Shown here: positions 2,801 through 51,667 of the stretch, one piece after another | How the letters are laid out: each line of letters begins with the position of its first letter | How positions within the stretch are numbered: position 1 is the stretch's first letter | From: an uncultured Gammaproteobacteria bacterium | GTDB lineage: Bacteria > Patescibacteriota > Patescibacteriia > Patescibacteriales > UBA12465 | Reading direction: 5' to 3' | DNA length: 64,000 bases | NCBI GenBank assembly: GCA_964431235.1 | Contig: CAYSJA010000030.1 | Coordinates: 1,774-65,773 of the forward strand | Program-made: the position numbers and the translations under genes | The notes under the pieces: model-generated | The model's database searches: none | Told to the model about the DNA's origin: nothing | What the model saw: only the letters and a program-made list of their open reading frames with translations

Positions 2801-3760
2801 CTAAAACCTATCCTTACCGTGTATTTTGCGATGTATATCCCTTAGTTGTTTATTGGTAACATGGGTATAAATTTGGGTAGTGGCAATATTACTATGCCCT
2901 AAAAACTCTTGGAGTGTACGCAGATCAACCCCTTGATTAAGAAGATCAGTAGCAAAAGAATGCCTAAGAGTATGAGGTGTAGCCATTATTGGCAACCCAC
3001 TGATTTTTACATATTTTTTAACAATATCTTCAATGCTTTTAACAGTCAGACGACGCGACTTATCACTCAATTTTTTTTCACTTCCTCTTTTATAATTAAT
3101 AAATAAAGCTTCAGCCAAATCCTGCCTTTTATTTAAATAAACGCGCAGGGAAGAGACCGCTCGTTTAGAAAAATAAACTGTTCTTATCTTCTCGCCTTTA
3201 CCGATAACAGCAATTTCTAAATCATTAGTATCATCCTTTATCTTTACTTGATCTCTGTTTAGAGCAGCTAATTCAGCAACACGCAAACCAGTGGAAAACA
3301 AAGATTCAAGCAAAGCTTTATCTCTTAAACCGATAATAGTATTAATATCGGGAGAATTTAATAATCTTGATAATTGCTCCAACTTTAAAAACTTTATCTC
3401 CTTATCTGCTTTATCCTTTGCTAATTTAACCTTTGAGGGCGGTAGGGAAGTAATTTCTTTTTCTACAAAAAATTCCAATAAAGACCGCAAAGCAATAAGA
3501 TAATAATTTTGAGTAATCTTTTTAAGCGGTCTTTTTTTTATAGGATTAATATGGCGAGAAAGATATACTTTATAGCGCCAAATATGTTTAACATCTAACT
3601 GAGCAGGTGTTATAGAGCTTAGTTTCTCTTGCTTAAGCCAGAAAAAAAATTTATGCAAAAAACGCCCGTAGTTTTCTTGGGTCTTGACAGATAATCCTTT
3701 TTCTATTTCACAGTAATCTAAAAAATCCGGCAAGTATTTAATAATTGGTTTAGAACTCAT
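2801..3760 (-). CDS. tyrosine site-specific recombinase (XerC/XerD family)
   Basis: C-terminal catalytic motifs HTLRHSFAT ... LGHSNIATTQIYTHV; N-terminal core-binding domain; 319 aa. Confidence 0.8.
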   Translation of the reverse strand: MSSKPIIKYLPDFLDYCEIEKGLSVKTQENYGRFLHKFFFWLKQEKLSSITPAQLDVKHIWRYKVYLSRHINPIKKRPLKKITQNYYLIALRSLLEFFVEKEITSLPPSKVKLAKDKADKEIKFLKLEQLSRLLNSPDINTIIGLRDKALLESLFSTGLRVAELAALNRDQVKIKDDTNDLEIAVIGKGEKIRTVYFSKRAVSSLRVYLNKRQDLAEALFINYKRGSEKKLSDKSRRLTVKSIEDIVKKYVKISGLPIMATPHTLRHSFATDLLNQGVDLRTLQEFLGHSNIATTQIYTHVTNKQLRDIHRKIHGKDRF

Positions 3761-9368: not shown

Positions 9369-10616
9369 CTATTTTAAAAATTTCATTCTCTTGGGTAAAT
9401 ACTGACGCAAAATTTTAGGAATCAGAACTGAGCCGTCGGCCTGCTGATTTTGCTCTAAAATAGCCGGCAACAAACGACTGGTAGCTAAACCAGATCCGTT
9501 TAAAGTATGAACAAATTCATTTTTTCCGATCTTTTCATTTTTATATCTTATCTGACCGCGCCTGGCTTGATAATCAAGCGCATTGGATACGCTACTTACT
9601 TCTTTATAAACATTCATACTTGGTATAAATACTTCCAAATCATAAGTTTTAGCCATAGCAAAACCGCAATCACCGGCCGCCAATTTAGAAACTTGGAAAT
9701 GCAAATCTAAACCCTCTAATAACTTTTTAGCATTATTGACTAGTTCTGCAAACATTTGCCAACTTTCTTCTGGTCGAGAAAAGATAAACATCTCTATTTT
9801 ATTAAATTGATGCCCCCTTATCATTCCTCTTTCTTCCTGGCGGTAACTACCAGCCTCACGTCTAAAGCAAGGTGAATAGGCAAAATACTTTTTAGGCAAA
9901 TCATTTTCTAACAAAGTTTCGTTACGATGATAATTCCCTAACATCATTTCACTGGTAGCATTGAGACATAAAGAATCTTGATTCCAAAATAAATCATTTT
10001 TAAATTTAGGTAAATGTCCAGAAATATAAGCTGATTTTTCTGTAAGTAAAAAAGGAGGAATTAAAAATTCATATCCGTTATTAACGTGAAAATCAATAAA
10101 ATAAGAAAGCAGCGCCCATTCTAACATAGCGCCGAAACCAGTATAGCACCAAAAACCGGTTCCGGACATTTTTACCCCTCTTTCATAATCTATCAAATTC
10201 AAGGAAGAAGCCAATTCCATATGATCTTTAGGAGTAAAAGAAAAATCTGGTTTTTTGCCATAAGTATAAATAACTTCATTATTTTCCTTGCCGCCAGCCA
10301 CTACGTCAAGTGCTGGCAAATTAGGTAATTCTGACATCTTTTCAGCTAATTCTCTATCGATACGAGATAATTCTTCCTCAAACTTTTTTATTTTTATCCC
10401 TAAAGATTTCATATTAGCGATGATATCCGGCATCGGCTTAATCTTAGAATTTTTATTTTTTTCCGCTTTTAATTCCTCAATTTTGGAAATAAATTCGCGC
10501 CGTTTATCGTCCAAAGCGATAATTCTTTCTAAATTTAAATTAGCCAGATCCATCCTTTTAAGCAGCCCTGCTTTTACTTCCTCCTTTTTATCTCTTATTA
10601 AATTGATATCTAACAT
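9369..10616 (-). CDS. serS: seryl-tRNA synthetase
   Basis: MLDINLIRD N-terminal coiled-coil arm; class II core motifs (FRREAGS, GSGLATSR). Confidence 0.9.
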   Translation of the reverse strand: MLDINLIRDKKEEVKAGLLKRMDLANLNLERIIALDDKRREFISKIEELKAEKNKNSKIKPMPDIIANMKSLGIKIKKFEEELSRIDRELAEKMSELPNLPALDVVAGGKENNEVIYTYGKKPDFSFTPKDHMELASSLNLIDYERGVKMSGTGFWCYTGFGAMLEWALLSYFIDFHVNNGYEFLIPPFLLTEKSAYISGHLPKFKNDLFWNQDSLCLNATSEMMLGNYHRNETLLENDLPKKYFAYSPCFRREAGSYRQEERGMIRGHQFNKIEMFIFSRPEESWQMFAELVNNAKKLLEGLDLHFQVSKLAAGDCGFAMAKTYDLEVFIPSMNVYKEVSSVSNALDYQARRGQIRYKNEKIGKNEFVHTLNGSGLATSRLLPAILEQNQQADGSVLIPKILRQYLPKRMKFLK

Positions 10617-10625
10617 ATTTTTATT

Positions 10626-12272
10626 TTAATTTATTACTTCGCCACCAAAAGTCTTGAGCAAATTATTCATTAATGAGTCGTCCTTATTTCTCTGAGCTTT
10701 ACTATTATCTAAATTATTAAATTCATCGTTGGGCTGATTTTTTATTCCTCTCACGGCTAAATTTTCATCAAGCTCTGTTTTTAAATTAATACCAATACCA
10801 AACACTTCAATTAGAGTATTTTCTATCAAATTTTTAATATTTTCATCCTTTACTCTATCTTGATGAAATTTATATTTAAATATTAATCGTAAACAGCCAG
10901 AATTAATTTCCTGAGGTTCACAATTCTGCAATACGAAAGACAGAGAATGATTATATTTTTTAATTTTCATTAAAAATTCAGGCCATTTTTCCATTATTTG
11001 ATTATGATCTAAATTTATATCAATTCTTTTGTTATTTTCAATTTTCAAAGGGGATACAGAATCTTTTTTAGAATCTTTAGAATTAACCGCGGCTGAATTT
11101 AAATTATTGTTAGGTAAAACTGATTCAATTTCATTTTTAGAAATTAATTCTTCCTTCCTTGCTTTTAAAACAGTACCTACTTCTTGAGAACATATTTCTA
11201 TAACTGCTAATTCTAAAGGTAATTGTAAAATTAACTGATTTTTATCATCATAGGATATTAACAAACGTTTTATATAAAATAGCAATTGATTAAGAGATAA
11301 AGAAGCTGATAATTCATTTATTTTTATTTCCAAAGCATCGCCTAAATTAAGTCCTAAACTATCAGATAATTGAGGATTGATCTTAAAAATAATCATCTTC
11401 CTAACCATAAAAATAATTTCACTAATAAAATTCTTGATACTAGCTCCAGAATCAGCTAACGAATTTACTAATGCTAAAGCTTTTACTGTATCTTTGCGGG
11501 GGAAATAAGATAAAAGTTCAATAACTTCGCTATTATTATAATGAGGCATAACTAATTCAGCCTGCTCCAAGCTTATCCTTTTATCCCCCAAAGAAAAAAT
11601 TTGTCCTAACAGGCTTTCCGCATCCCGCAAATGACCGTTACTACGCCTAGCCACCGCCTCTAAAATTTCAGTGTCTATTTCTTTCTTTTCTTGTTTTGCT
11701 ATTAATTTTAATTTAGTAACTATATCAAAAATGCTTATTTTTTTAAAATCAAAACGTTCACAACGGGAAACAATGGTATAAGGGACTTTATGGACTTCGG
11801 TAGTACATAATATAAATATAACATAAGGTGGCGGCTCTTCTATTATTTTTAAAAGAGCATTAAAAGCTGAAGGCGAAAGCATGTGAACTTCGTCAATAAT
11901 AAATATTTTATATTTAGCCCGACTTGGAACTAATCGAGAAAAAGAAATAATATTCTCTCTCACATTATCTACCCCAGTATTGGAAGCAGCGTCTATTTCA
12001 ATAACATCTAAATGGTTGCCAGCCGTAATATCTTGACAATTATTACACTTTCCGCAGGGCTCATAATCATTTTCCTGACGATTAAGACAATTAACTGATT
12101 TAGCTAAAACTCGGGCCATCGTAGTTTTACCCACTGCTCGGGGACCGCAAAAAAGAAAAGCCTGGGCTAGCTTACCGGTGCTTATCTCGTTTTGCAAGGT
12201 AATTTTAATATGTTTTTGCCCTAAAATTTCAGAGAAATTCTGCGGGCGATAATTGCGATATAAAGTAGACAT
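10626..12272 (-). CDS. dnaX: DNA polymerase III subunit gamma/tau
   Basis: AAA+ Walker A GPRAVGKTT, zinc module CGKCNNCQDI, Walker B IIDEVHML. Confidence 0.9.
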   Translation of the reverse strand: MSTLYRNYRPQNFSEILGQKHIKITLQNEISTGKLAQAFLFCGPRAVGKTTMARVLAKSVNCLNRQENDYEPCGKCNNCQDITAGNHLDVIEIDAASNTGVDNVRENIISFSRLVPSRAKYKIFIIDEVHMLSPSAFNALLKIIEEPPPYVIFILCTTEVHKVPYTIVSRCERFDFKKISIFDIVTKLKLIAKQEKKEIDTEILEAVARRSNGHLRDAESLLGQIFSLGDKRISLEQAELVMPHYNNSEVIELLSYFPRKDTVKALALVNSLADSGASIKNFISEIIFMVRKMIIFKINPQLSDSLGLNLGDALEIKINELSASLSLNQLLFYIKRLLISYDDKNQLILQLPLELAVIEICSQEVGTVLKARKEELISKNEIESVLPNNNLNSAAVNSKDSKKDSVSPLKIENNKRIDINLDHNQIMEKWPEFLMKIKKYNHSLSFVLQNCEPQEINSGCLRLIFKYKFHQDRVKDENIKNLIENTLIEVFGIGINLKTELDENLAVRGIKNQPNDEFNNLDNSKAQRNKDDSLMNNLLKTFGGEVIN

Positions 12273-12275
12273 AAA

Positions 12276-14744
12276 TTATTTTGTTATTTGCGTCCGCCTA
12301 GTAATTTCAGCTTCCACTAGTCTGACACTTCGACCATATTTCAAACGAGAAAGAGAACGGATACGATCAGCTATCTCTTCCCTCTTTACTCCCATAAGAG
12401 GCCAAATGGTTCGTAAAGAGAAAGGGCGAGCAGCAGTATTATCTATTAAAAGTTTAATATAAGCAGTCCCTTTGTCAATGTTTATAAGATCATATTCATT
12501 AAAAACCGGACTAAATTCTTTTACTAGAAATTCAGCGTCTTCTGAACCGACTTTGAAATTTATAATTGTGCCAATATTACCAAAAACAGCGTCTTTTATT
12601 TCTGTATTATTATTTTTAACAAGCTGACCAATATACTGATGGGCAACAACCAGATTTAGAGCGTATTTTCTAGCTTCAGACAGTATCTGGCAAATGGAAT
12701 TGGTGGTGAAATTCTGAAATTCATCAATATAAAGATAAAAATCTTTCCTTTTTTTTGCCGGCAAATCAGTACGGGATAAAGCACCCATTAAAATTTTTCC
12801 TACTAAGATCATCCCTAAAAGATAAGCATTCATTTCCCCAACTGTTCCCTTGGGCAAATCAACCAATAAAATTTTCTGCTTATCCATAATTTCACGCAGA
12901 TTAAAAGCACTTTTTTGCTGCCCTATTATCGGCCGCATCATATCATTAGAAATAAAGGAAGTTAATTTAGAGGTAATATAAGGAACAATATTAGCTAAAG
13001 CCGCTTCACCACCAGCTTTTTCCGCTTCTTTAGTCCAAAAATCAACTACTGTTTTATTCTTACACCTTTCTAATTTTAAACGCCGAAAATTGACATCAGC
13101 TAAAACTTTAGGGATTTCCATTAAAGTAGAACCAGAAGCAGGATCCTCCATTACCAATAACATTGCGTTTCTCATATATTGTTCAAACATAGGCCCGCCG
13201 GTTGACTTTAAATCATAAAGTTTATCAAAAATTCCTATCATCTCATTAATAACAAAACTTTTTTGTTCTGGATAGCGCGAATCGTATTCTAATAAATTAA
13301 GCGCTAGCGGTCTTTCTAAATCAGCTGGTGAAAAAATAATTACATCTTCCGATCTTTCCGGCGGAATACGCTCTAAAATATCTTGGATTAAATCACCATG
13401 GGGATCCAAAACGCAAACCCCTTCACCATTTTGAATATCCTGAATTGCCATATTAGCTAAAAGTACAGATTTACCAACACCAGACTTACCAACTACATAG
13501 GTGTGGCGTCTTCTATCATCTCTTTTAATCTTAATTTCTTTTTTAAACCCGCGATAAAAATTATACCCTAAAATAATTCCCTCTTCCGGAGTTTCAGCTG
13601 GAGCCGGAGCTGATTTGGCTGTTAGCCATAAAATATTAGGAGTTTCCACACTTCGCAAAGGTAAATGGAAAATACTGGCTAATTCTTCGCTATTTAAAAG
13701 AAAACTATTCTTTTCCCGAAAATGGCGATAAATAAAATCTTTTATAATCTTATCTTGATTCTTTTTCTTAGCTCTGGAGAAAGAATTACCATAAGAAAAA
13801 TTATTATATTCAGAAAAAGCGCTGGCAATATTTTCTAAATGTCTATCGGCTTTTTCTTTGCTTTGAGAAAAACTAAGCACCCGTAAATTAACATCAAGAC
13901 CAGCTTTTAAATTTTTTTCTTCTATTTTTTTAAGCATCTCTTCTTCAATCGCGCTAAGGCGCCTTTCTGGCTTTGACTCTAAATTTTGACCTTTATTTTT
14001 TGTAGGTGGATTTATAAAAGAAAAGGCTTTATCTAAAATATTTGATTTCAAACCCTCAGAAACAGAATTCTTTTGCTGTATCTGAAACACTTTTTTTCTC
14101 ACTGCTCCATGCCAAGAACTCCTAGCACTGCGTACTAAATATTGTAAGGACAAACTCTCTCCTTTTTCCAATTTAGATAAAACATTGATTAAAGAATTCA
14201 TGGGATCGACTTCCATTTCTTGATAAGTTTTTAAAGGAAAAATAAAACTTTTACTAGTTTTTAAATAAGCGGCTGACACTTGACCCTGAACACCAAAAGA
14301 ATTATAGTCTTCTATTTCCTCAATTGAAGCGGCTGGATACTGAGCATGAATTTGTTGCTCTAAATAACGAAAACTTTCAGAAGCGCAAGCAAAATAAAAA
14401 ACAATTTTTTTAGAATCAGCCACTATTTCAAAAGAAACATGATCTTGACGTCCCAGCAACCAAGCTTTGAAACCGTGTTGAGCTTTTAATCCACCAATAG
14501 CCGCAAATATGGCTTCGCCTTTGGCTATTTCTTCTCTTAGCTCTTGGACAGAATTATTATTATTTTTATCTTCAGGTTTTTCTTTAGGAATACGGACAGA
14601 AAAGACATGGTGATTGAAATAACGGCGTCTAGAAAAAACTATCCTAAACAAACGTAAAATTATAAAAATAGCTATCACTACCGCTAAAACGGCAAACAAA
14701 TAAAGCCAAATAGTATTAAAATCTGTTATCTCAAAAGTCAACAT
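12276..14744 (-). CDS. membrane-anchored type IV coupling protein-like ATPase (VirD4/TraG/TraD family, or DUF87/HerA-like)
   Basis: N-terminal TM helix; Walker A VVGKSGVGKS; VLDPHGDL resembles the coupling-protein DPKGE motif; Walker B LYIDEFQNF; VVAHQ sensor motif. Confidence 0.6.
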   Translation of the reverse strand: MLTFEITDFNTIWLYLFAVLAVVIAIFIILRLFRIVFSRRRYFNHHVFSVRIPKEKPEDKNNNNSVQELREEIAKGEAIFAAIGGLKAQHGFKAWLLGRQDHVSFEIVADSKKIVFYFACASESFRYLEQQIHAQYPAASIEEIEDYNSFGVQGQVSAAYLKTSKSFIFPLKTYQEMEVDPMNSLINVLSKLEKGESLSLQYLVRSARSSWHGAVRKKVFQIQQKNSVSEGLKSNILDKAFSFINPPTKNKGQNLESKPERRLSAIEEEMLKKIEEKNLKAGLDVNLRVLSFSQSKEKADRHLENIASAFSEYNNFSYGNSFSRAKKKNQDKIIKDFIYRHFREKNSFLLNSEELASIFHLPLRSVETPNILWLTAKSAPAPAETPEEGIILGYNFYRGFKKEIKIKRDDRRRHTYVVGKSGVGKSVLLANMAIQDIQNGEGVCVLDPHGDLIQDILERIPPERSEDVIIFSPADLERPLALNLLEYDSRYPEQKSFVINEMIGIFDKLYDLKSTGGPMFEQYMRNAMLLVMEDPASGSTLMEIPKVLADVNFRRLKLERCKNKTVVDFWTKEAEKAGGEAALANIVPYITSKLTSFISNDMMRPIIGQQKSAFNLREIMDKQKILLVDLPKGTVGEMNAYLLGMILVGKILMGALSRTDLPAKKRKDFYLYIDEFQNFTTNSICQILSEARKYALNLVVAHQYIGQLVKNNNTEIKDAVFGNIGTIINFKVGSEDAEFLVKEFSPVFNEYDLINIDKGTAYIKLLIDNTAARPFSLRTIWPLMGVKREEIADRIRSLSRLKYGRSVRLVEAEITRRTQITK

Positions 14745-14749
14745 AAACT

Positions 14750-15265
14750 CTATACTTTATCTTTTAAATTTATTATTTTATCAGCTTTTATTTTAGCTTC
14801 CTGTTCTAAAAAAAATTGGTTGATACCAGGAATTATCTTCAGCCATTTTTTTATCAAATTTATTATTTTACCAATCTTTATCTTAGTTTTATCTAATAAT
14901 GAATTTATTTTTTCTACAGTTTCTTCACCAGCCAATTTGAATTCTTGCTGTTTTTTCGGATTAAGCTTTAAAAAAATTTCATGTAAACCTTCGGCTAAAA
15001 TCTTATCTATTTCTTGAGATCGGCGTTTATGAAAACTAAGAGCTTGTCCAGAAATAGTATTTATTTCTGCTTCTTCTCTAATTTTAACTTCTGTTTTATC
15101 AGCCTTTTTTCTAGTATCTAAACTTTCTTCCCTTTTTTCACTGCGCGCTTCTAAATTTTCCGGCGTAATAATATTTTCCTGATTCTCTTCGGATATTTTA
15201 AAATTCTCCGGATTTATTTTTAAATTCTCCGGATTGTTTTTTTTAGATTCACTGGCTATAGCCAT
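14750..15265 (-). CDS. hypothetical K/E-rich protein
   Basis: ORF immediately upstream of, and co-directional with, the coupling-protein-like gene; low complexity with a predicted coiled coil. Confidence 0.4.
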   Translation of the reverse strand: MAIASESKKNNPENLKINPENFKISEENQENIITPENLEARSEKREESLDTRKKADKTEVKIREEAEINTISGQALSFHKRRSQEIDKILAEGLHEIFLKLNPKKQQEFKLAGEETVEKINSLLDKTKIKIGKIINLIKKWLKIIPGINQFFLEQEAKIKADKIINLKDKV

Positions 15266-15285: not shown

Positions 15286-15470
15286 TTACTCTAAACTAAT
15301 AGCTTGAACTGGACAATTTTGCTCAGCATTTTTAGCACAGTCAGTTATCTTTGGATTAATAACTTCTGATTTATTAACAGCGTTCATTTGAAAAGTCTCT
15401 GGGCATATGCTAGCACAAAGACCACAGCCAATACATTTGTTTTTATCTACTTTTACTATAAAATTGTATA
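15286..15470 (-). CDS. 4Fe-4S single-cluster ferredoxin (Pyrococcus/Thermotoga type) lacking a canonical start codon
   Basis: Manual minus-strand translation: IVKVDKNKCIGCGLCASICPETFQMNAVNKSEVINPKITDCAKNAEQNCPVQAISLE*. CxxCxxCxxxCP followed by C(x7)CP. There is no in-frame ATG/GTG/TTG between the upstream in-frame stop and the first Cys, only ATA/ATT codons. Coordinates approximate (+/-2). Confidence 0.6.
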
Positions 15471-31187: not shown

Positions 31188-32891
31188 TTATTTTTTTCTT
31201 TTAGCAAAAAATTTAGTATGAATAAGCTTAGTTGTCATTTTTTTGTCTTTTACCCATTTATAGTAATTTAACATTACCTGATTTTCATGGGCTCGACGCA
31301 TCTTCTTATCAAGATCTATCTTATACAAACCTTGGCTACGTCTCTTCTTAATCTCAAAAGTAGTAGGAAAAGGTTGTCCACCACCGCCTAGGCAACCGCC
31401 AGGACAAGCCATAACTTCAATATAATGATAATTTTTTAATTTAGTAATAATCTTGGGAAAATTACCAATACCGCTTACAACTGCTACTTTTAGTTTTTTT
31501 CTACCTAAATTAACTGTTGCCTCTTTTATTCCTTTTAACCCTCTTACTTCTTTAAATTCTAATTTAGGCAAAATAGTTCTCTCTTTTTTATTTTTATTAT
31601 ATAAAACAACTGCTGAGCGTAGAGCTGATTCCATTACTCCGCCGGAAGTGCCATAAATGGCAGCCGCCCCAGAACCATCGTTAAATAAAGAATTTGTTTC
31701 GCTATCTTTAAGTGTCGCTAGATCAATCCCCTGCTTTTTCAGCATAAAAGCAAATTCTCTTACCGTCAAGACATAATCTACTAAGCGCCTATTTTTATAA
31801 AATAGTTCTTTTCGTCCAGCCTCGTGTTTTTTGGCAGTACAAGGAACAATTGAAAGTATTTTTATCTTTTTGTCGCTTAATTTATTTTTCTTAGCAAAAT
31901 AGCTTTTTATAGCTCCGGCACTATGAATATGAGGTGAACGAGAGGTAGTAAGACAAGGAATGAGTTCAGGGTGATAAAATTCAACATAAGCAACCCAAGA
32001 TGGACAACAAGAAGTCATCATTGGTAAAATCGCTTTCTTGCTATCCAACCTTTCTAAAAGTTCTTCAGCCTCTACCATAGTGGTAATGTCAGCACCAAAA
32101 TTTATATCAAAAACATAAGAAAAACCGATTTTTTTTAAAGCTGTGTTTATTTTTTTAGCACAGTTTGTGCCATAGGGTAAACCAAATTCTTCGCCTAAAG
32201 AAACTCTAACAGCCGGTGCAAACTGAGCTACCATAATATTATCCTTATTTTCAAGGGCTTTTTCTACTTCTAGCCATTGAGTTTGCTCTTGAGCAGCTGC
32301 TACCGGACAAACATTAGTACATTGGCCACAATAAATACAAGCTTTATTCTTATCAGCTACTGGTTTAACCTCCTGTTTGTAGCCATTACCGTCAAAATGC
32401 AAAAATTCAATTCCTTGCAAAGCACAAGCTTCTATGCAATTACCACAATCAATACATTGGCTACCATCTATTTCTACGGCATTGGAAAATTTATAAGTTT
32501 TACGATTATATTTTCTATCAGTAAATTCAGTTATTTTAATATTATAATCACGCGCCAAGTTCAATAAACCACAATTAAAACGCAAAGTGCAATCTGCACA
32601 TTTTTCAATATGAGAAGCAAATAGGAGCTCAATATTCAAACGCCTCATTTTTCTAACTTTCTCTGATTCTGTTAATATTTCCATCCCCTCCCTTACTAAT
32701 GTAGAATCAGCCGCTTGCAATTTCCTTTCCCCTTTTATTTCTATTAAAGATATTCTATCTCCGCCTTTATTTTTTAAATCCGGATGGTAGGAAAGAAAAG
32801 GAATTTTGATATTATTTTTAAGCGCTACTTCTAATATAGTTTCACCTGGCTTAACTATTAATTTATTATTATTAATTTTAATGTGAATCAT
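31188..32891 (-). CDS. hydA: [FeFe]-hydrogenase catalytic subunit HydA
   Basis: H-cluster motifs L1 MMTSCCPSW, L2 VPCTAKKHE, L3 EVMACPGGCLGGGGQP; two 4Fe-4S motifs CIDCGNCIEAC and CIYCGQCTNVCP; His-ligated cluster region HIEKCADC...NCG; no Cys in the first ~95 residues. Confidence 0.85.
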   Translation of the reverse strand: MIHIKINNNKLIVKPGETILEVALKNNIKIPFLSYHPDLKNKGGDRISLIEIKGERKLQAADSTLVREGMEILTESEKVRKMRRLNIELLFASHIEKCADCTLRFNCGLLNLARDYNIKITEFTDRKYNRKTYKFSNAVEIDGSQCIDCGNCIEACALQGIEFLHFDGNGYKQEVKPVADKNKACIYCGQCTNVCPVAAAQEQTQWLEVEKALENKDNIMVAQFAPAVRVSLGEEFGLPYGTNCAKKINTALKKIGFSYVFDINFGADITTMVEAEELLERLDSKKAILPMMTSCCPSWVAYVEFYHPELIPCLTTSRSPHIHSAGAIKSYFAKKNKLSDKKIKILSIVPCTAKKHEAGRKELFYKNRRLVDYVLTVREFAFMLKKQGIDLATLKDSETNSLFNDGSGAAAIYGTSGGVMESALRSAVVLYNKNKKERTILPKLEFKEVRGLKGIKEATVNLGRKKLKVAVVSGIGNFPKIITKLKNYHYIEVMACPGGCLGGGGQPFPTTFEIKKRRSQGLYKIDLDKKMRRAHENQVMLNYYKWVKDKKMTTKLIHTKFFAKRKK

Positions 32892-32910
32892 TAAATATAA
32901 TTTCTATTTT

Positions 32911-33975
32911 TTATTTTTGTTTATAAATATTTTCTAAATAACTTTTTACAGTCTGGGACAGAGATGATCCTAAAGAACAAAAACTAGCCTGCTCTAAATT
33001 ATCAAGTAAATCAATGAATTTTTTCTTATTAATTTCTCCCTTTTTCAGCATCTCCCTAAGACGATAGCTTCCTTCCCGACAAGGTGTACATAAACCACAG
33101 CTTTCTGTTTCATAATATTTAAGCCAATAATTAAGCAACTTATCCTTATCAGTCTTCTCTTTATTAAAAACCATAATAAAACCAGAGCCTTCAATTGGCG
33201 CTAAAAGCTGATTTTTGTCCAATACTTCGCCGCAAACCTCTCCGCCAAGTATAGCAAAAAAATCAAAATCGGGATAATTATCAGTCGCTCGTAAAATATC
33301 TTCAGCACTAGCATCAGCTGGTAAAGAATAGACGCCCTTATATTTAACCGCGCCCGAAATTGTATATAAACGCTTGCCTTGATATTTATTCTTTGAAATC
33401 AGGCTAACACTATACAAAGTTTCTACATTATTAACTAAAGTTGGTAAATTATTAATTCCCTTTTCGGCCGGAAAAGGCGGTCTTTTTTTAGGCTCCGCCC
33501 TATTTCCTTCTATTATATTCAAAACCGCGCTCTCTTCGCCACCAATATAGCTTGGACTTAACGGTTTGATAAAAAATTTAATTTTTTTAGCTAAAAATAA
33601 ATATTTTTTTTCTGATTTTAAAACGGCAAACAGAGATTTACTGTATAAATTATAGTATTTTCTATTGATATAAAAATAAACTGTCTTTATTTTATTCTTC
33701 CCCAAAAAATTATAAGCCAAATTTATACCATCTATCACTGTTGGTGCTTCATTTTTAAGCAAAAAAGCGTCCTTCTTTACCCCGGGCTCTCCTTCGGCAG
33801 CATTAACCACTATATAACCTCCGGAAACCCTTCTTAAAGCACTTTTAACTATTAGCCATTTTTTAGCAGTTGGAAAATTAGCTCCACCTCGCCCGACTAA
33901 ACCAGCATTTTCAATCTTTTCAATTATACTTTGACTTTTCATGCCTTTAACGCGCCGTCCAGCCGCCATCAACAT
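32911..33975 (-). CDS. NuoF-like NAD(P)H-binding flavoprotein (hydrogenase HydB-like, truncated)
   Basis: GRGGANFPTAKKW, FMN-site NAAEGEPGVKKD, 4Fe-4S N3 motif ESCGLCTPCREG. It is 354 aa, with no N-terminal thioredoxin-like or C-terminal ferredoxin extensions. Confidence 0.75.
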   Translation of the reverse strand: MLMAAGRRVKGMKSQSIIEKIENAGLVGRGGANFPTAKKWLIVKSALRRVSGGYIVVNAAEGEPGVKKDAFLLKNEAPTVIDGINLAYNFLGKNKIKTVYFYINRKYYNLYSKSLFAVLKSEKKYLFLAKKIKFFIKPLSPSYIGGEESAVLNIIEGNRAEPKKRPPFPAEKGINNLPTLVNNVETLYSVSLISKNKYQGKRLYTISGAVKYKGVYSLPADASAEDILRATDNYPDFDFFAILGGEVCGEVLDKNQLLAPIEGSGFIMVFNKEKTDKDKLLNYWLKYYETESCGLCTPCREGSYRLREMLKKGEINKKKFIDLLDNLEQASFCSLGSSLSQTVKSYLENIYKQK

Positions 33976-44519: not shown

Positions 44520-46496
44520 TTATTCCACTCGTCCGGAATTATTTAAAGCGGCAATATCATCATCTTCCAATTTAGTAGTCTTGGGCCCTGATTTAGCGCT
44601 TATTTCCTGTTTAGTTTCGGTATCAATAGCACTGGAAGAAGCTCCAGGTGATAAGACTAAAATTTTATCCCGATCAGATTCTTGTGGCGTCAAAGAAATA
44701 GAAAAAGAAGCTTCTGTCTGATATACTGAAGCTGGTAAACGCCCTATGCTCCAAATAACTTCCCTTTTATCTTGATCAAAATATAAATCACCAACACTAA
44801 CCGAATCATAATTTAACCAAGAGATATTTTTAGGTAAAGCCAGCTTTACTTCAGTTTGCTTAAGCTCATGTAAATTATTTTTTAAACGCCAATATACTCT
44901 AAAAGAGGTAGCTTCGTTAACGCGAGGAGGCAAGGGACCCGAGCCAACGGGTAAATTATTCTCATCAAAATATTTAATTTCTTCTATAATAGATAAATTA
45001 CTATTTAAAGGGCTAGTTATTACATTACTTTTATTTTCGCTATCCGCTCCTTCACTATCACCACCATATTGAGAATAAACGGAAATTTCCATATCTTTCA
45101 AGGAATAATCATTATTATAATCTTTTAGCTTTACGGAAAAATTTATCTCTCCTTCTTCTCCTGGTTTTATCTCGGCCAAAGCAGGAATATCTTGTTTATT
45201 CCAAATTATTTGCCCGGATCTAATTTCACCGGGAACACTAGTTTCAATGCTAGCTAAATCAAACATAAAACCATCTAAAACTGCAGTAATAACAGCATCT
45301 TTAAACGAACTTTCACCTTTATTGCTATAATTCAAGGTATAATTTAAAATTTCGCCAAAATTAACGGCCTGATTATTCTTAGAACCGTTTAAAAATAAGG
45401 CTATATTTAAATCACTCTTCACCGCTTCTATTGATAAAATTTTTTCTAAAAAAGTATAGGATTGGCCATCAGGTAAACGCTGTTTAAGACTAAGAGATAA
45501 ATCAGAAGATAAGGGCTCTTTTTTAGCTAAATAATTAAAAACTAAACTTCGATCAGTTAAATCAGATAAGCTGACCAACCAGCTATTCGGCCCCTCCTTA
45601 ATTGGGGACTCATCATTATCTTTTGCATTATCATCAACAGCTAAATTTATCTCCACTTCTTGGGGGGGGTCAAATTCAATAATAAAATCTGATAAATAAT
45701 TGTCTGAAAAAAAAGAAGAAAAAGAAAGATTTATTTCACTATTTTGACCAACGAAAACAAGATTTGAATAGTCAACATCCATTTCAAGGCCTAATCCATT
45801 TATCACCGTAGCAGCTGAGCTTTCCTTTTTAAACTGGCTGGAAAAATTTAAAGGAGTATAATGCAAGTTACCGGAAATAATATTAACTGACTCCAAAGGG
45901 GCAATAATTTCTCCAGTAACCAAAACATGGGCTTCAGAACCCGCCGGTATATTAGGCAAATTAAAACCGTTGTTTAAAAAATCAGCTTGAGGCTCGGAAA
46001 AAGAAAAGATAAAATTCTCTGGATAGTTGAGTTCTAATCTAACTTTGCTAATAGTGAATTTAGTAGGATTTTTAATAATTATTTTATAAGAGAATTCTTC
46101 ACCAACTAGAACCTCTTCTAAAGCTTCAATCTTAAATTCAACCGCTCCCATGTCACTATCGCCAGTAAAATAATAAATATAAGCAAAAGAAGCGGCTAAA
46201 AATAGAATAACAAAAATAAGCATCCTCTTAAAAATTCTTACTATTAATTTATTTCTTTTTTTTATATTCATTTTTTTTACATCAACAAGACCTCCCTTTT
46301 TATCACGATAAATTTCATTTAAATTAGAATCTATTTCCTGGTGCTTGATTTCTTTATCCAGCACTTCTTCAAAATCAGTTACTTCATTGTCGGACGGGAC
46401 TGGCCGCTTCACAAAAGCTGACAAGCCTGACAATTTATGATTTTTAATTTCCAAATTTTTTTTTGTTTTCTTATTTTGTTTTTTATCTTGTTTCAT
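44520..46496 (-). CDS. hypothetical surface protein, type II membrane topology, extracellular beta-rich repeats (DUF11-like)
   Basis: Lys-rich cytoplasmic N-terminus, one TM helix, ~550 aa Asn/Ser-rich ectodomain; contains a C8 homopolymer in the coding strand. Confidence 0.5.
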   Translation of the reverse strand: MKQDKKQNKKTKKNLEIKNHKLSGLSAFVKRPVPSDNEVTDFEEVLDKEIKHQEIDSNLNEIYRDKKGGLVDVKKMNIKKRNKLIVRIFKRMLIFVILFLAASFAYIYYFTGDSDMGAVEFKIEALEEVLVGEEFSYKIIIKNPTKFTISKVRLELNYPENFIFSFSEPQADFLNNGFNLPNIPAGSEAHVLVTGEIIAPLESVNIISGNLHYTPLNFSSQFKKESSAATVINGLGLEMDVDYSNLVFVGQNSEINLSFSSFFSDNYLSDFIIEFDPPQEVEINLAVDDNAKDNDESPIKEGPNSWLVSLSDLTDRSLVFNYLAKKEPLSSDLSLSLKQRLPDGQSYTFLEKILSIEAVKSDLNIALFLNGSKNNQAVNFGEILNYTLNYSNKGESSFKDAVITAVLDGFMFDLASIETSVPGEIRSGQIIWNKQDIPALAEIKPGEEGEINFSVKLKDYNNDYSLKDMEISVYSQYGGDSEGADSENKSNVITSPLNSNLSIIEEIKYFDENNLPVGSGPLPPRVNEATSFRVYWRLKNNLHELKQTEVKLALPKNISWLNYDSVSVGDLYFDQDKREVIWSIGRLPASVYQTEASFSISLTPQESDRDKILVLSPGASSSAIDTETKQEISAKSGPKTTKLEDDDIAALNNSGRVE

Positions 46497-49005
46497 ATTT
46501 GTTTTTTAAAAGAATAGAAAAATATTTATCCATATCCACGCTGCTTTCAATCAGCCACCCGTTCTGCCAAAAAAGATTATCAGGATGTTTCCAAATAATT
46601 TCCAAATTATCAGGTAAAATTAAACGGCTGATAAAAGAACTCGGTGCTGCCCCTGGCTGCTTTTGCAATAATAAAGAATAAGGAATAAAATTTTCAAAAT
46701 CAGGATTAATAAGTTTATTTAAGCGTTGCCAAAAATTGTTATTTCCCTTCTCTTGATCACTAAAAAAATTAAAAGGTAATTCATAGCTGATACTAATATC
46801 TGCTATCTCTCCCGGGTCAATCATCACCCAACCGGCAAAAACCGTCTTACCGTGCTCTTGGTATATTTTAATCCCACTGATTGGATCTTCTTTTGCTAAC
46901 CTTTCTTCTTGTAAAAATTTACTTTCCAGCCAATCATCCTCTGGCTCCTCAAAATAAGAAGAATCGGGAGCGCTGAAACCGGAAGCAGAAATAAGACGGC
47001 TCCCTAAAGGTACATATACTCTAAGCCAGTTAACATTACGTACTCCGGTTAAAGCTTCATTTTTTATACCCAAATGAGTACGCTCTATTTTTATATTATT
47101 TATTATTTTTCCTGTATTATCAATTTGGGATAAATGTTCTATGTTTTCTGTTATTTTACGATCTGTCTTTTGACCGGCAATATTAGTATTCACCACTAAT
47201 AGGTAATCATGTGTTGAAGGTTTTACCTCTCCAGCCAGATTTTTTTTAACCATCTCTTGTTGTAGCTTAGAATCAGAAAAATAAAACATAATTTGCTTTT
47301 GTGCTAAACTACTTTCAAATAATTTGATAATTTTTACTAAGTTATCTTTATCCAATCTCTGTGGTAAAATTTCTAAAATTCTAACCATTAAATCGCCTAC
47401 TATTTTTTTAGGTTTATTTTCCGGATTATTTTCTAAATCTTGATATAAAGGAACATCAGATTCTATAATTCCTTTCATCTCTTTAAAATCAATTGTTTCC
47501 TCGGGATGAGTCATAATTAAATTATCATGCTCTACAATTTTTTGAACTGTTTCCCAAAAATTATTACTATCTATCACTAGGCCGTATTCCTGGTCCATAT
47601 CTATCGGCCCAGTTATCTCCAATAAATTTTCTACTACTGTCGGTGTAAAAGTAATAACACCATCAACCGTAGATCCACCACTTTTTTCATAAAACCACAT
47701 TAAATTTTCGGCGGTTTTAGGCCAATCAGGCCACCAATTAGCATCCCAAAAGTGCCATAGAGGATTAACTAGCCATAAGGGTTCGGGCGCCTTTACTTTA
47801 ACTGTCATGCTGCCTTCGGTGTCATAAGAGCCCCCAGCCGGAACTTCTACATTCCTGATTCTGCCTTCTCTGATATCTATTAAAGCATAACTGCCTAAAA
47901 AGCCTCCAGAAGCTCTTAGCTCAGCATTATTTTGAAAAACTAATAAATAGCGCTTATCTTGGCTTTGTCCTAATATTTCATAAATTTTATCAGACAAAGA
48001 GATAAAACTGTCTAAATTAATATTTAAAAATTTTGTTTTATCCTTTAAATCTGAAAATTTATCTTGATACTCCAACGGCAAATTATTTTTATCTATTTTA
48101 GAAATAGCTTCCTGTAAATCTAAAGCATCTTGCCGGGCTAAATAGCCATAATAAAAAAAATTCTGTAGAGACGACAAAAAATCGCTTTCGGCTTGATAGT
48201 TAAACAAACTATTTGTTGCTAAAACTAAATTTTTTCCTAGAGACGAACTTAGTGTTCCAGCGGCTAGAATATTTTTACTTTCCGAAGCTAATTTTAATTT
48301 AGGATTATTTGATAGAGAAGCTAAAAAAAACAAAGAATCATTAATTGCCGCTAAATCTTCTTCTGCCCGCAAAAATTCTTGGCTCGCCAAAGAAAAATTT
48401 CTATCAGCACTCTGAAAATCAAATTGAGAAACAGAATCAACCGCTAACGCTAGTTGAGAAATAGCGGCCTGGGAACGAAACATAATCTTAGATTCTAAAT
48501 TATCTAAATTTAAAAACTGAAAATATGATAATATTTTCAAAGGTACTACTAAAAATAGGAGTACAAGGGCAAAGAAAAAAACAGATCGATACCAAGTTAA
48601 TTTGTGCTCTACCCTTTTTAAACGGCGCTTGGTTGAAAAAAAACGACTATTTAAAATTCTTCTTTTATCCTTAATCACTTGTTGCCATAAATTATTGCCT
48701 TTTTTCTTCGTTCTATAAAATTTTAAATCTTTAAGCCAAAAATTTATTTTTGTTTTGAAAAAATCAAACGGCAAACTATGAGATAATAAATTAAAATTAA
48801 AGGATTTTTTCTTTCTTTTATTAATTTTATTAAAAAAAGGTGAACGTAATTTACTAATTTTTTTTAAACCAAAAAAACTGTCTGATTTTTTTCTCTTTTC
48901 TACTTCTTCTTTAAGTGGTTTTTGTTGCCGCAAATCAACCACAAAACTAGAGCTTCTAGCTCGTGCTAACTCTTGAGGGCTTATTTTTTTCTGTCTATTA
49001 ATCAT
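46483..49005 (-). CDS. hypothetical large membrane-anchored protein (possibly DUF4012-like)
   Basis: Basic N-terminus, single TM helix around residue 150, ~680 aa Trp-rich ectodomain; no catalytic motif recognised. Confidence 0.45.
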   Translation of the reverse strand: MINRQKKISPQELARARSSSFVVDLRQQKPLKEEVEKRKKSDSFFGLKKISKLRSPFFNKINKRKKKSFNFNLLSHSLPFDFFKTKINFWLKDLKFYRTKKKGNNLWQQVIKDKRRILNSRFFSTKRRLKRVEHKLTWYRSVFFFALVLLFLVVPLKILSYFQFLNLDNLESKIMFRSQAAISQLALAVDSVSQFDFQSADRNFSLASQEFLRAEEDLAAINDSLFFLASLSNNPKLKLASESKNILAAGTLSSSLGKNLVLATNSLFNYQAESDFLSSLQNFFYYGYLARQDALDLQEAISKIDKNNLPLEYQDKFSDLKDKTKFLNINLDSFISLSDKIYEILGQSQDKRYLLVFQNNAELRASGGFLGSYALIDIREGRIRNVEVPAGGSYDTEGSMTVKVKAPEPLWLVNPLWHFWDANWWPDWPKTAENLMWFYEKSGGSTVDGVITFTPTVVENLLEITGPIDMDQEYGLVIDSNNFWETVQKIVEHDNLIMTHPEETIDFKEMKGIIESDVPLYQDLENNPENKPKKIVGDLMVRILEILPQRLDKDNLVKIIKLFESSLAQKQIMFYFSDSKLQQEMVKKNLAGEVKPSTHDYLLVVNTNIAGQKTDRKITENIEHLSQIDNTGKIINNIKIERTHLGIKNEALTGVRNVNWLRVYVPLGSRLISASGFSAPDSSYFEEPEDDWLESKFLQEERLAKEDPISGIKIYQEHGKTVFAGWVMIDPGEIADISISYELPFNFFSDQEKGNNNFWQRLNKLINPDFENFIPYSLLLQKQPGAAPSSFISRLILPDNLEIIWKHPDNLFWQNGWLIESSVDMDKYFSILLKNKYETR

Positions 49006-50192
49006 TATTTTGCTTTAAACAATATTTCTTTATAAACATTAAAAGTATTGTTGGCACATTCCCACCAATTATATAAACGGCTCCTTTTATAACCTCTTTC
49101 CTTCATTTTTTGACGTAAATCACTATCATTAAGAACTAATTTTATCTTAGATAAAAAGTCATTCTTATCTTCAGGATTAAAATAAACAGCTGCCATGCCT
49201 AAAATTTCCGGCAAACTAGCTCTATCCGAGCTTATCACCGGACAACCTTTAGCCATAGCCTCTAAAGGGGGCAAACCAAAACCTTCATATAAAGAGGGAA
49301 AAACATAGGCTTTGGCTTCCTGATAAAGAATTTCTAATTGAGCATCGGGCACATAGCCAGGAAAAACCGCTGAACTATTTATATTCTCTTTCTGCCATAA
49401 ATTTAAAGACTGGGCATATTGCTGGATGCGTTGATAAAAATAATCGGGCTTACCTACTAAAACCAGTTTTAATTCCGGCTTATCTTCACGTAAATCAGCA
49501 AAAACATCAAGTAGAGTTTCTAAATTCTTATGAGGATAGGCGTTTCCCACATAAAGCAAAAAATTGTTACCTAAGTGATATCTCTGACGCGTTTCTTTAG
49601 GATCAATTTTAGAAATGAATAAAGAGTCGCGGCCGCGGGATAAATTTGAAACACCCTCATAAGTTACCACTATTTTTTCCGGATTTAGCTTGAATTTGCT
49701 GATAATATCCTTTTTAGTAAATTCAGAAACAGCAATTATTTTTTTAGCCCGCCAAACAGCAATTTTTAACACTAAACGATAAGCAAAATTTTTAAACTTA
49801 TAGACGGTTGTATTTTTTGTAGTTGCCCTAATGGTAGAAAAATGGGTTAAAATTAAATCATGCAAGGTTACGACGAACTTAACCGGTGTCATTATAGGAA
49901 CATTAAAATGGGGGAAATGTATTAAATCCAAATTTTCTCTAGCAATACAAAAAGGTAGAAAAATTTGTTCTTGCCAAGAATACCAGGGAATACTTATCTT
50001 GACTTTCCTAACCCGCGGACTATTACTATAAAATTCATCATAATTATTAGGACTTAAAAAAATAACAAAATCGCAGGCTTCTTCTTCCTGAAAATTATTT
50101 ATTTTTATTATATTATCCACCACTTCCTGGGTATAACGACCCAAACCTTTGCCAATTGGGCCGTAAAAGCGGGCATCTATGCCTATTTTCAT
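49005..50192 (-). CDS. glycosyltransferase family 4 (GT-B)
   Basis: C-terminal EGFGLPPLEAMAKGCPVISS motif typical of GT4. Confidence 0.8.
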   Translation of the reverse strand: MKIGIDARFYGPIGKGLGRYTQEVVDNIIKINNFQEEEACDFVIFLSPNNYDEFYSNSPRVRKVKISIPWYSWQEQIFLPFCIARENLDLIHFPHFNVPIMTPVKFVVTLHDLILTHFSTIRATTKNTTVYKFKNFAYRLVLKIAVWRAKKIIAVSEFTKKDIISKFKLNPEKIVVTYEGVSNLSRGRDSLFISKIDPKETRQRYHLGNNFLLYVGNAYPHKNLETLLDVFADLREDKPELKLVLVGKPDYFYQRIQQYAQSLNLWQKENINSSAVFPGYVPDAQLEILYQEAKAYVFPSLYEGFGLPPLEAMAKGCPVISSDRASLPEILGMAAVYFNPEDKNDFLSKIKLVLNDSDLRQKMKERGYKRSRLYNWWECANNTFNVYKEILFKAK

Positions 50193-50221: not shown

Positions 50222-51667
50222 TTAAGTAAAAGGGAGGTTTTCTGGAGGCGAAGCCTTTTTTTGAGGGACATCGTCTGTTATCTTAGAATCGTTTTTTTCC
50301 ACAAAAAAATTCTCGTTATTTTTATTATCATTTTTAAAAAAACTATCGGGAATTGGCGTCAATTCTGAATCTAGAGGTAAAGAAAAAGGGGCATCCGCCT
50401 TTTTACCCTGAGTTTTTTGTATTAAAGACGCCTTAACACTGCCCTCTAAAGGAAAATGCCATAAAGTTGCCAATTCTTCTATATTAAATATGCGAGGCGA
50501 TAAACCTTGACTGTTAGATCTTTTGACATAAGCTTGAAAAATTCTGTTTTTCTTTCTCTGTAAACGTGGTTCCCGCCAAAAATAAGCTGTCCTGGTCATA
50601 GTTTTTTTAACATCGGGTTTTAGATTATTTAAATCTAAAGCGGCAAACTGCTTCATAAAGCCAACAATACCATTAGCGACCTTGGCCTTATTCATAATTT
50701 CTTTTTGGGACACATACACCATTCTTATTTTAGCGGTAAAAGCTAATTTACTGGCTTTAAGACTAATACCTTCTAATTTCTTTTGTTCTGAAGGAGTTAA
50801 ATCTAGCATAGTTTTTATCTTCTCTTCTTTTTCCTTATTTTCAATATCGCCCCAAATGCTATAAATAACTTCACTTAATTCGCCCAACCACTCCATTAGT
50901 TGCATAAAAAACCCTTTTTTAGCTTTTGATTTTCTCTCCAGAATCTTATCAACTTCTTTTTCTACATCTTTAACCCAATCAAAACCAATCGGGGTAACAA
51001 TAAATTGTAGCCATAGCTGCTCGCCTTGACGTAAAGAACCACATAAATCCATTAAACTAGCCATCGGATCCTTAAATTGTGTTTCTTCAGGTCCAATTTG
51101 ATGTTCAAAATCACGATAACACTTAATTGGATACATCCAAGGAGATGCTTGGGTAAACTCTACGCCCCAAATATCATATTCTTCATCCGGATATTTTTGC
51201 GCTACCGTTTCTGTATAGTCGTCAACTTCGGAAATTTCTGCATCAGGGTACTGGGAATAGACAGAAGATTCAATTAAATTCCTATATTCAGCCGGGGTTC
51301 TAATTAAAAATTGGGTATAACCCTCCAAGCTGACAACCTCATAGCTAAAAGATTTCTGAAATTTGCCCTCAAACCATGTTTCAAAAAAATTTTCTGTACC
51401 ATGGGCGCCGGCTAGATAAGTAAACATGTTTTCCACTGCCTTAGGTGTCTGTTCATTACCCTTGGGGATATCAATCGCTAAAAGTATATTTTTATGGGTA
51501 GCCGCCCATTTATTCCTTAACCAATAAAGATAGACTTGGAGCACTCCCCAAATAAAAAAGATCCCGATTATCAACCAACCAAAATTACCAATAAAGGACC
51601 AAAACATCTCATCAGGTGGCAAACTAAAAAATTTTTCTATACCGGCAGTATTTATAACTATATCCAT
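50222..51667 (-). CDS. hypothetical membrane protein
   Basis: Two N-terminal TM helices then a ~400 aa domain with no recognised motifs. Confidence 0.4.
   Translation of the reverse strand: MDIVINTAGIEKFFSLPPDEMFWSFIGNFGWLIIGIFFIWGVLQVYLYWLRNKWAATHKNILLAIDIPKGNEQTPKAVENMFTYLAGAHGTENFFETWFEGKFQKSFSYEVVSLEGYTQFLIRTPAEYRNLIESSVYSQYPDAEISEVDDYTETVAQKYPDEEYDIWGVEFTQASPWMYPIKCYRDFEHQIGPEETQFKDPMASLMDLCGSLRQGEQLWLQFIVTPIGFDWVKDVEKEVDKILERKSKAKKGFFMQLMEWLGELSEVIYSIWGDIENKEKEEKIKTMLDLTPSEQKKLEGISLKASKLAFTAKIRMVYVSQKEIMNKAKVANGIVGFMKQFAALDLNNLKPDVKKTMTRTAYFWREPRLQRKKNRIFQAYVKRSNSQGLSPRIFNIEELATLWHFPLEGSVKASLIQKTQGKKADAPFSLPLDSELTPIPDSFFKNDNKNNENFFVEKNDSKITDDVPQKKASPPENLPFT

Follow-up and report, generated by a model that had tools for sequence, protein, structure and literature searches.

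In a 64-kb stretch of DNA from an uncultured member of the Patescibacteria (contig CAYSJA010000030.1; hereafter, the window), we examined an intact open reading frame (ORF) of 822 amino acids (aa) that begins with ATG and encodes a membrane-anchored P-loop ATPase resembling the coupling proteins of type IV secretion systems (T4SSs). On the minus strand, it is preceded by a 171-aa ORF rich in lysine and glutamate (K/E-rich) and followed by dnaX and serS (Table 1). Because these four genes share a strand and are separated by gaps of only 5, 3 and 9 nt, their co-transcription is very likely, and translation of the ATPase is probably coupled to that of the small helical protein encoded upstream. 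The 822-aa protein was found letter for letter on seven metagenomic contigs with the neighbours unchanged, more than 120 protein clusters share 70–81% identity with it, and the GC content of the gene is that of its surroundings, which is uniform over the region. It is a genuine gene under strong constraint. No T4SS, relaxase or pilin gene is present in the window or in the 10 kb past either end (about 84 kb of the contig), and the flanking 10-kb segments contain housekeeping genes only. A first-pass annotation of this DNA had described an orphan gene in a tight housekeeping operon with dnaX, serS and the K/E-rich ORF and with no VirB-type, relaxase or pilin genes nearby, and had reasoned that a conjugative element close by would make the gene ordinary conjugation machinery. 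The description held over the whole 84 kb, in which no such element lies.

The motor domain carries a Walker A motif (VVGKSGVGKS, residues 417–426), a VLDPHGD box (445–451), a Walker B motif (YIDEF, 672–676) and an AHQ sensor (701–703), exactly as the first-pass annotation had quoted them together with a single N-terminal transmembrane (TM) helix. None of 51 diverse homologues (31–49% identity) deviates at G419, G422, K425, D447, P448, G450, D674, E675 or Q703, and by its sequence the motor is catalytically intact. Several Pfam models of type IV coupling proteins (T4CPs) match it, in general by small margins: T4SS-DNA_transf (PF02534) with 28.2 bits against a cut-off of 20.1, TrwB_AAD_bind (PF10412) with 30.5 against 20.5, and TraG-D_C (PF12696) with 23.2 against 22. 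Among the 51 family members, these models match 27, 47 and 40, respectively, while FtsK_SpoIIIE matches a single one; DUF87 (PF01935; 23.4 bits, cut-off 23.2) covers the Walker A region only. The best NCBIfam models are likewise T4CP models (SXT_TraD, TOL TraD and CD1115 VirD4-like), all of them far under their cut-offs (SXT_TraD, 50.2 bits versus 366; CD1115 VirD4-like, 36.2 versus 250), so the protein belongs to none of the curated TraD, VirD4-like or TraG equivalogs or subfamilies. When the 51-member profile was compared with solved structures in the Protein Data Bank (PDB), TrwB (4e-8) and DotL (6.9e-7) ranked above HerA (1.5e-3), and no VirB4 sequence was matched at E≤1.

The predicted structure gives the same placement. 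In Foldseek searches, the C-terminal half of the AlphaFold2 (AF2) model aligned with the whole of TrwBdeltaN70 (TMt 0.63–0.69 over 420–450 columns of 411–427-residue chains), and Cag-beta and HerA reached TMt values of about 0.53–0.56. A helical insertion at residues 494–621 falls between Walker A and Walker B in the AF2 model, at the position occupied by the all-alpha domain in T4CPs, and the PF02534 and NF045973 alignments pass through it unbroken. Because T4CPs outscore HerA and FtsK and an insert is present at the all-alpha position, we regard the motor as coupling-protein-like; by both sequence and fold, it is closest to the type IV coupling proteins TrwB, VirD4 and DotL. The first-pass annotation had proposed that a best match to HerA- or FtsK-type translocases, coupled with the lack of a TrwB-like all-alpha domain, would remove the protein from the T4CP family, and neither HerA with its HAS-barrel nor FtsK_SpoIIIE is the best profile match. 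A PADLOC model, mad8 of the MADS defence system, also matches residues 410–764 (5.5e-15), more strongly than any single Pfam model, which suggests that T4CP-like ATPases have also been recruited into defence systems. A defence role for the 822-aa gene was rejected, as its context gives no support.

The portion of the protein preceding the motor departs from this picture. The only TM helix is N-terminal (AF2 helix 9–42, hydrophobic core 13–32), and because it is followed by a basic cluster (R31, R34 and RRR39–41), the positive-inside rule indicates that the bulk of the protein is cytoplasmic (N-out/C-in). Between the TM helix and the ATPase lies a domain of about 310 aa, DUF8128 (PF26449, residues 46–358), which was assigned from precomputed Pfam matches covering the identical protein and every homologue listed. 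The AF2 model of the full protein has a pLDDT of 89.2 and a pTM of 0.82, and that of residues 1–396 alone has a pLDDT of 84.7. For the latter, the only significant Foldseek matches in the PDB were 12 VirB4/TrwK chains (E 5.9e-6 to 1.5e-4, approximately 410 columns, TMq 0.37–0.41), with the next fold at 5.5e-3. For the full model, the best E value was obtained with full-length VirB4/TrwK (2e-13, about 900 columns end to end), in an alignment whose TM-score is low because the domains are oriented differently. The protein is thus predicted to have the two-domain fold of VirB4, an N-terminal domain (NTD) of the VirB4 type followed by a C-terminal RecA-like ATPase. This link is purely structural, since a profile of the N-domain matched no VirB4 among PDB sequences, PF03135 is absent from the 822-aa protein, and TIGR00929 scores 21.5 bits against a cut-off of 643. 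Because the predicted fold of residues 46–358 matches the VirB4 NTD only, we consider the protein to be a VirB4/VirD4 hybrid in layout rather than a plain VirD4/TraG protein. The VirD4/TraG-like identity proposed in the first-pass annotation thus stands for the ATPase half, on the Pfam, TrwB/DotL profile and Foldseek evidence, and overlooked the VirB4-NTD-like DUF8128 domain. A literature search for DUF8128 returned nothing, and we found no published description of the VirB4-like N-domain or of the two gene lineages described below.

The window contains a second DUF8128 gene. Its 481-aa minus-strand product is homologous to residues 12–386 of the 822-aa protein (BLASTP 3e-17) and belongs to a conserved family with PF26449 only, whose genomic context is fixed: rmlD, rmlA, GT2, sigma70_r4/HARE-HTH, DUF8128, GT4, DUF4012 and DUF11-like, a gene order that recurs in distant genomes. 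In the window, the genes following the 481-aa ORF encode a GT4 protein (49005..50192), a DUF4012 protein (46483..49005) and a DUF11-like surface protein (44520..46496). Scoring with hidden Markov models (HMMs) and identity matrices distinguished two old paralog lineages, A and B. The window 822-aa gene belongs to lineage A, and its ATPase is 48–51% identical to the A copies of loci L074, L079, L086 and L087. Lineage-B proteins are longer (950–1,180 aa), are 55–77% identical among themselves and 42–45% identical to the window gene, and have disordered, low-complexity C-terminal tails of 100–330 aa. In this respect they are reminiscent of TraD-type coupling proteins, whose disordered tails serve in substrate recognition. 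Because a full-length ATPase of 956 aa (P0266) has an N-domain of the 481-aa type (240 versus 109 bits), the 481-aa ORF is best read as a lineage-B gene that has lost its ATPase. The two lineages may also lie close together: Berkelbacteria-like genomes carry lineage A, a protein with an EGVFDG motif (see below), a sigma-like gene and lineage B in one cluster, and in L074 (1128-6163), the A and B copies stand in direct tandem with overlapping stop and start. Among other family members, P0145, P0154, P0165, P0166, P0172, P0174 and P0176 reach 1,400–2,006 aa through very long C-terminal extensions, and in L035 (324-2921), a lineage-A gene is split into ORFs of 397 and 457 aa by a frameshift or an assembly error.

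How widely are the gene and its surroundings conserved? The family extends across the Patescibacteria. At E≤1e-3 it comprises 21,568 representative clusters, a number that falls to 5,527 at E≤1e-30, and it was matched in at least 600 GTDB species. For a sample of 80 loci (species), all ORFs within ±8 kb were clustered. All 80 loci kept are from the Candidate Phyla Radiation (CPR), including Falkow-, Uhr-, Magasanik-, Komeili-, Moran- and Paceibacteria as well as Doudna-, Curtiss-, Woese-, Levy- and Berkelbacteria. The recurrent neighbours are housekeeping genes: dnaX (24 loci), cysS (14), ndk (13) and the beta-CASP RNase gene (12), followed by map, secY, adk and ribosomal protein genes. In approximately 26 loci, dnaX lies 0–5.6 kb downstream on the same strand, and these loci constitute one class-level group, outside of which ndk or other housekeeping genes occupy the downstream side instead; none but the closest relatives keep serS adjacent. 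The 822-aa ORF belongs to the core genes of Patescibacteria, is inherited vertically and is not mobile. The first-pass annotation was therefore right in seeing a core-operon gene and not mobile cargo, but the particular linkage to dnaX is a property of one class-level group, and that to serS is more local still. We also observed a protein of about 170–250 aa (motif EGVFDG..MIG.DGK.Y.VP.NYASKSKLVEGD.LKLTI) encoded directly downstream of lineage-A genes in about 22–25 species, between the ATPase gene and dnaX or the sigma-like gene (e.g., L009:10469-11170, L027:4394-5053, L086:5230-5742 and 20 other loci). It contains no Pfam domain in a Pfam scan and is absent from the window, where dnaX abuts the ATPase gene.

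A small ORF occupies the slot upstream of the lineage-A gene in most of the 80 species. In the 171-aa protein of the window, the K/E-rich N-terminus is variable, and the helical region at the C-terminus (WLK.IPG.N.FFLEQEAKIK.DKI) is conserved. The family of this protein is among the recurrent neighbours (22–27 of the 80 loci), and 27 of the 80 species encode a homologue immediately upstream on the strand of the ATPase gene, commonly with a 4-nt overlap. The K/E-rich ORF is thus a conserved partner and not a bystander. The first-pass annotation had noted that it directly precedes the ATPase gene on the same strand and had suggested the co-occurrence analysis that brought out this conservation, the significance of which it had missed. 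In 15–19 of the loci, the same slot holds a second small family of about 140 aa with a C-terminal motif (...LD.FHD.L...); examples are L016:972-1400, L057:7562-7990 and 17 other loci, in classes other than those with the K/E-rich partner. No homology between the two families was detected (hhalign probability 0.3%), and neither contains a domain recognised in the Pfam scan.

As in the T4CPs VirD4, TrwB, TraD and DotL, a membrane anchor is joined to a nucleotide-binding domain with Walker A, DPxGD, Walker B and an AHQ-type sensor, with a helical insertion at the all-alpha-domain position, and it is to T4CPs that the best sequence-profile and per-domain fold matches lead. The small helical protein encoded directly upstream recalls CagZ and its coupling protein, Cag-beta. 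In contrast to T4CPs, which have two TM helices, the protein has a single one, the 310-aa VirB4-NTD-like domain separates the anchor from the nucleotide-binding domain, which therefore does not directly follow the membrane domain, and the gene is a core chromosomal one in a housekeeping operon, without nearby relaxase or mating-pair formation (Mpf) genes; its scores also fall far short of the NCBIfam T4CP equivalog cut-offs. In size (822 versus 823 aa), two-domain layout and end-to-end structural alignment, the protein resembles VirB4/TrwK, and the N-terminal TM helix on a VirB4-like layout resembles VirB3–VirB4 fusions. Unlike VirB4, however, it shows no VirB4 signal at the sequence level, its ATPase domain is nearer to T4CPs, and its gene does not stand beside virB3, virB6 or virB8.

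The nearest architectural precedent is CedD, which, together with CedB, serves the crenarchaeal Ced DNA import system and likewise combines a TM segment, a VirB4-NTD-like domain and an ATPase of the FtsK/HerA superfamily (PMC11868833). The Ced system is also chromosomal and relaxase-free and has paralog pairs (PMC11868833). On the other hand, the Ced ATPases belong to the HerA/VirB4 clade whereas ours is T4CP-like, sequence similarity is negligible, each Ced NTD spans only part of the VirB4 NTD, and the Ced genes are induced by DNA damage whereas the 822-aa gene lies in a constitutive housekeeping operon. The 822-aa protein falls outside the NCBIfam CedD family NF053655 (21.8 bits against 600). 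The 481-aa ORF, for its part, can be compared with TrsD, a protein homologous to the N-terminal part of VirB4 that is abundant in Patescibacteria (PMC12102498): both are VirB4-NTD-like only and have no ATPase. TrsD genes are mostly found beside virB4, whereas the 481-aa ORF lies in an envelope-glycan cluster behind a sigma-like gene, and the likeness noted here is one of architecture.

Table 1. Features of the 822-aa ATPase locus and of its paralog in the window (residue numbers refer to the 822-aa protein).
Feature	Coordinates	Strand	Basis
Lineage-A DUF8128 + T4CP-like ATPase gene, 822 aa	12276..14744	-	ORF, Pfam/NCBIfam matches, AF2
N-terminal TM helix, residues 13–35	14640..14708	-	Sequence and AF2 secondary structure
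DUF8128 domain, residues 46–358, alpha/beta	13671..14609	-	PF26449; VirB4-NTD-like predicted fold
T4CP-like P-loop ATPase domain, residues 390–780	12405..13577	-	PF10412, PF02534, PF12696, PF01935; TrwB/DotL profile; Foldseek
Walker A GKSGVGKS, residues 419–426	13467..13490	-	G419, G422, K425 invariant
DPHGD box, residues 447–451	13392..13406	-	Aligned to TrwB DPNGD; D447, P448, G450 invariant
Helical insertion in ATPase, residues 494–621	12882..13265	-	AF2; HMM alignments; Foldseek
Walker B FYLYIDE, residues 669–675	12720..12740	-	D674, E675 invariant
Conserved C-terminal helical hairpin, residues 789–818, motif SRLKYGR...VE.EI..R	12291..12380	-	Conservation and AF2
171-aa K/E-rich partner protein gene	14750..15265	-	Stop 5 nt before ATPase start
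dnaX	10626..12272	-	3 nt downstream of ATPase gene
serS	9369..10616	-	9 nt downstream of dnaX
Lineage-B paralog, 481 aa, TM helix + DUF8128, without ATPase	50222..51667	-	BLASTP, PF26449
sigma70_r4 + HARE-HTH protein gene	51774..52811	-	Pfam; conserved upstream neighbour of lineage-B genes

Orphan T4CP-like genes in Patescibacteria are already known, because Quinonero-Coronel et al. (2025; PMC12102498) reported 5,713 VirD4-type T4CP homologues in 2,918 of 3,035 patescibacterial genomes. The first-pass annotation had called stand-alone coupling-like ATPases recurrent in such bacteria, which these figures bear out, and had missed that this was in print. The same survey noted that the t4cp homologue of Southlakia epibionticum is non-essential and held that exaptation cannot be ruled out (PMC12102498). 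The transposon-sequencing tables of Wang et al. (2023) for this organism, however, list two genes of the same layout. SEML1_0293, with TrwB_AAD_bind at residues 402–719, is non-essential and follows SEML1_0294, which encodes a 349-aa RpoS-like sigma factor; SEML1_0142 (3,060 bp, P-loop domain at 381–800) is essential at all time points (Wang et al., 2023). Twelve base pairs upstream of the latter, on the same strand, SEML1_0141 encodes a 139-aa hypothetical protein, received no insertions and was called essential (Wang et al., 2023). A sigma-like gene precedes SEML1_0293, as it precedes lineage-B genes, and on this synteny SEML1_0141/0142 would be the lineage-A counterpart. The published non-essential t4cp homologue of Southlakia is SEML1_0293 only, one of the two paralog lineages. 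By synteny, the window gene and its partner probably correspond to SEML1_0142 and SEML1_0141, both of them essential in the one relative that can be manipulated genetically. A homologue search with P0215, aimed at Southlakia and Saccharimonadia, returned Berkelbacteria-like proteins. We observed that SEML1_0142 and the small ORF upstream of it, although scored essential, are discussed in neither Wang et al. (2023) nor PMC12102498. In the same organism, the T4SS cluster is essential and has no recognisable coupling protein (Wang et al., 2023).

What, then, might this ATPase do? Tentatively, we favour the interpretation that the 822-aa protein is the missing coupling-type ATPase of a chromosomal, relaxase-less patescibacterial T4SS. 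It would form a membrane-associated hexameric ring, as its relatives do, and its VirB4-like N-domain would dock the ATPase on an inner-membrane platform of the VirB3/VirB6/VirB8 type, by the model of R388, in which the VirB4 NTD binds the tails of VirB3 and VirB8. ATP hydrolysis might then feed a substrate, more likely a protein than relaxase-led DNA, into a T4SS channel encoded elsewhere, and the small partner could act as an adaptor, gatekeeper or regulator, on the model of CagZ with Cag-beta or of IcmS/W with DotL. Several points weigh against this interpretation. Hexamer formation, docking and substrate are each inferred, the orthology of the window gene to SEML1_0142 is read from synteny alone, and a VirB4-type T4SS in the window organism is an assumption and not a reading of its genes. 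Furthermore, none of the gene families recurring within ±8 kb of the 80 loci is a T4SS, relaxase or pilin family, and in the wider survey, only 148 of the 5,713 T4CP homologues are near virB4 (PMC12102498). VirB4 was found in 2,417 genomes, compared with 2,918 for the T4CP homologues (PMC12102498), that is, in 80% versus 96%, which may mean that these ATPases are independent of the T4SS; such a difference is also expected from a metagenome-assembled genome incompleteness of about 20% combined with roughly two copies per genome.

These last observations would suit a membrane ATPase of T4SS ancestry that was exapted, alone or with membrane partners, to power another essential envelope process, such as assembling an envelope polymer or extracting or exporting surface proteins or pilins. 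A role in dislocating pilins from the membrane has been proposed for VirB4-type ATPases, the lineage-B remnant of the window lies inside a conserved envelope-glycan cluster, and exaptation has been raised in the survey itself (PMC12102498). Still, among the 80 loci, no candidate channel or substrate gene is conserved beside lineage A, substrate-receptor T4CPs typically have both the all-alpha-like insert and the TraG-D_C region, and the essentiality of both the T4SS and SEML1_0142 in one organism is more simply explained by one machine; we consider such a T4SS-independent role somewhat unlikely. A motor for DNA import or export through ComEC or a T4SS channel, serving nucleotide scavenging or recombination, would be in line with the shared layout of CedD, which is essential for DNA import, with the weak CedD match noted above, with the fact that T4CPs and FtsK are DNA translocases, with the dnaX linkage conserved across one class-level group and with the co-localisation of comF, recG and radA with T4SS loci in the ABY1 class. 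However, that CedD match lies far under its cut-off, the dnaX linkage does not extend beyond that group, and comEC is dispensable in S. epibionticum whereas SEML1_0142 is essential, a contrast that counts if orthology holds. We consider a DNA motor quite improbable.

A further possibility, that the protein is a segregation or division translocase replacing or assisting FtsK, draws on its nature as a membrane-anchored P-loop translocase of the FtsK-HerA superfamily that adjoins dnaX and is expressed constitutively with core genes. In S. epibionticum, FtsK itself is present in canonical form, complete with alpha, beta and gamma domains, and is essential, and the 822-aa protein has no gamma (KOPS-binding) domain; together with the single FtsK_SpoIIIE match in the family, this led us to reject an FtsK substitute, an explanation that seemed very improbable. 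Finally, the T4CP Pfam matches and a tyrosine recombinase gene at 2801..3760 might be taken to indicate an ordinary conjugative coupling protein left by an integrated or degraded mobile element. The recombinase gene lies 9 kb away among cell-wall genes, however, and looks like a housekeeping gene of the XerC/D type, whereas the 70–81% identity over more than 120 clusters, the housekeeping synteny kept in many classes, the unchanged GC content and the lack of relaxase and Mpf genes in 84 kb effectively refute mobile-element cargo, which we find scarcely credible.

Beyond the favoured role as a T4SS coupling ATPase, a bolder view can be formulated, which we regard as unlikely at present: lineage A and its partner would be an overlooked, phylum-wide essential machine of episymbiosis, and the ATPase would represent a third branch in the radiation of VirB4 and VirD4, one that has retained the docking domain of VirB4 as well as the all-alpha domain of coupling proteins. 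Such a branch would be a surviving intermediate of the split between VirB4 and VirD4 or an ancient fusion. Its place might be at VirB4-type positions of the inner-membrane complex of the T4SS, or it might drive a separate translocon. The T4SS model published for Southlakia does not include lineage A, and of the two paralogs, the 2025 survey names the dispensable one only.

Other features of the window can be noted briefly. Just upstream of the partner gene, a minus-strand frame at 15286..15450 reads ...KCIGCGLCASICPETFQMNAVNKSEVINPKITDCAKNAEQNCPVQAISLE and resembles a 4Fe-4S ferredoxin. It has no canonical start before the first Cys cluster, gene callers give a 33-aa ORF only, and the frame may be a remnant or may start non-canonically. 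An extended -10-like sequence, TGTGTTATAAT, lies about 60 nt upstream. In this AT-rich DNA, where such sites carry little information, the promoter and terminator scan yielded 49 sites against 36 expected. At 31188..33975 (minus strand), an [FeFe]-hydrogenase-like gene (567 aa, with a C-terminal MACPGGCLGGGGQP motif) stands beside a NuoF-like gene (354 aa), both assigned from their translations alone. ARAGORN found no tRNA or tmRNA genes in the window. Nearly all genes of the window are on the minus strand and the GC skew is steadily negative, which fits a single replichore.

The hybrid VirB4-like/T4CP-like architecture, the division into lineages A and B with distinct conserved partners, and the probable correspondence of lineage A to two paired essential genes are apparently unpublished, unlike the occurrence of orphan T4CP homologues in the CPR. 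A large part of bacterial diversity belongs to the host-dependent Patescibacteria, and in the one tractable species, the essential relaxase-less T4SS has neither an assigned coupling ATPase nor a known substrate. A near-universal core ATPase that combines a VirB4-like docking domain, a coupling-protein motor and a conserved partner is an obvious candidate for the missing part. The comparison of SEML1_0141/0142 with SEML1_0293 offers concrete genes for experiment, and the architecture described here bears on the question of how the VirB4 and VirD4 ATPases diverged.

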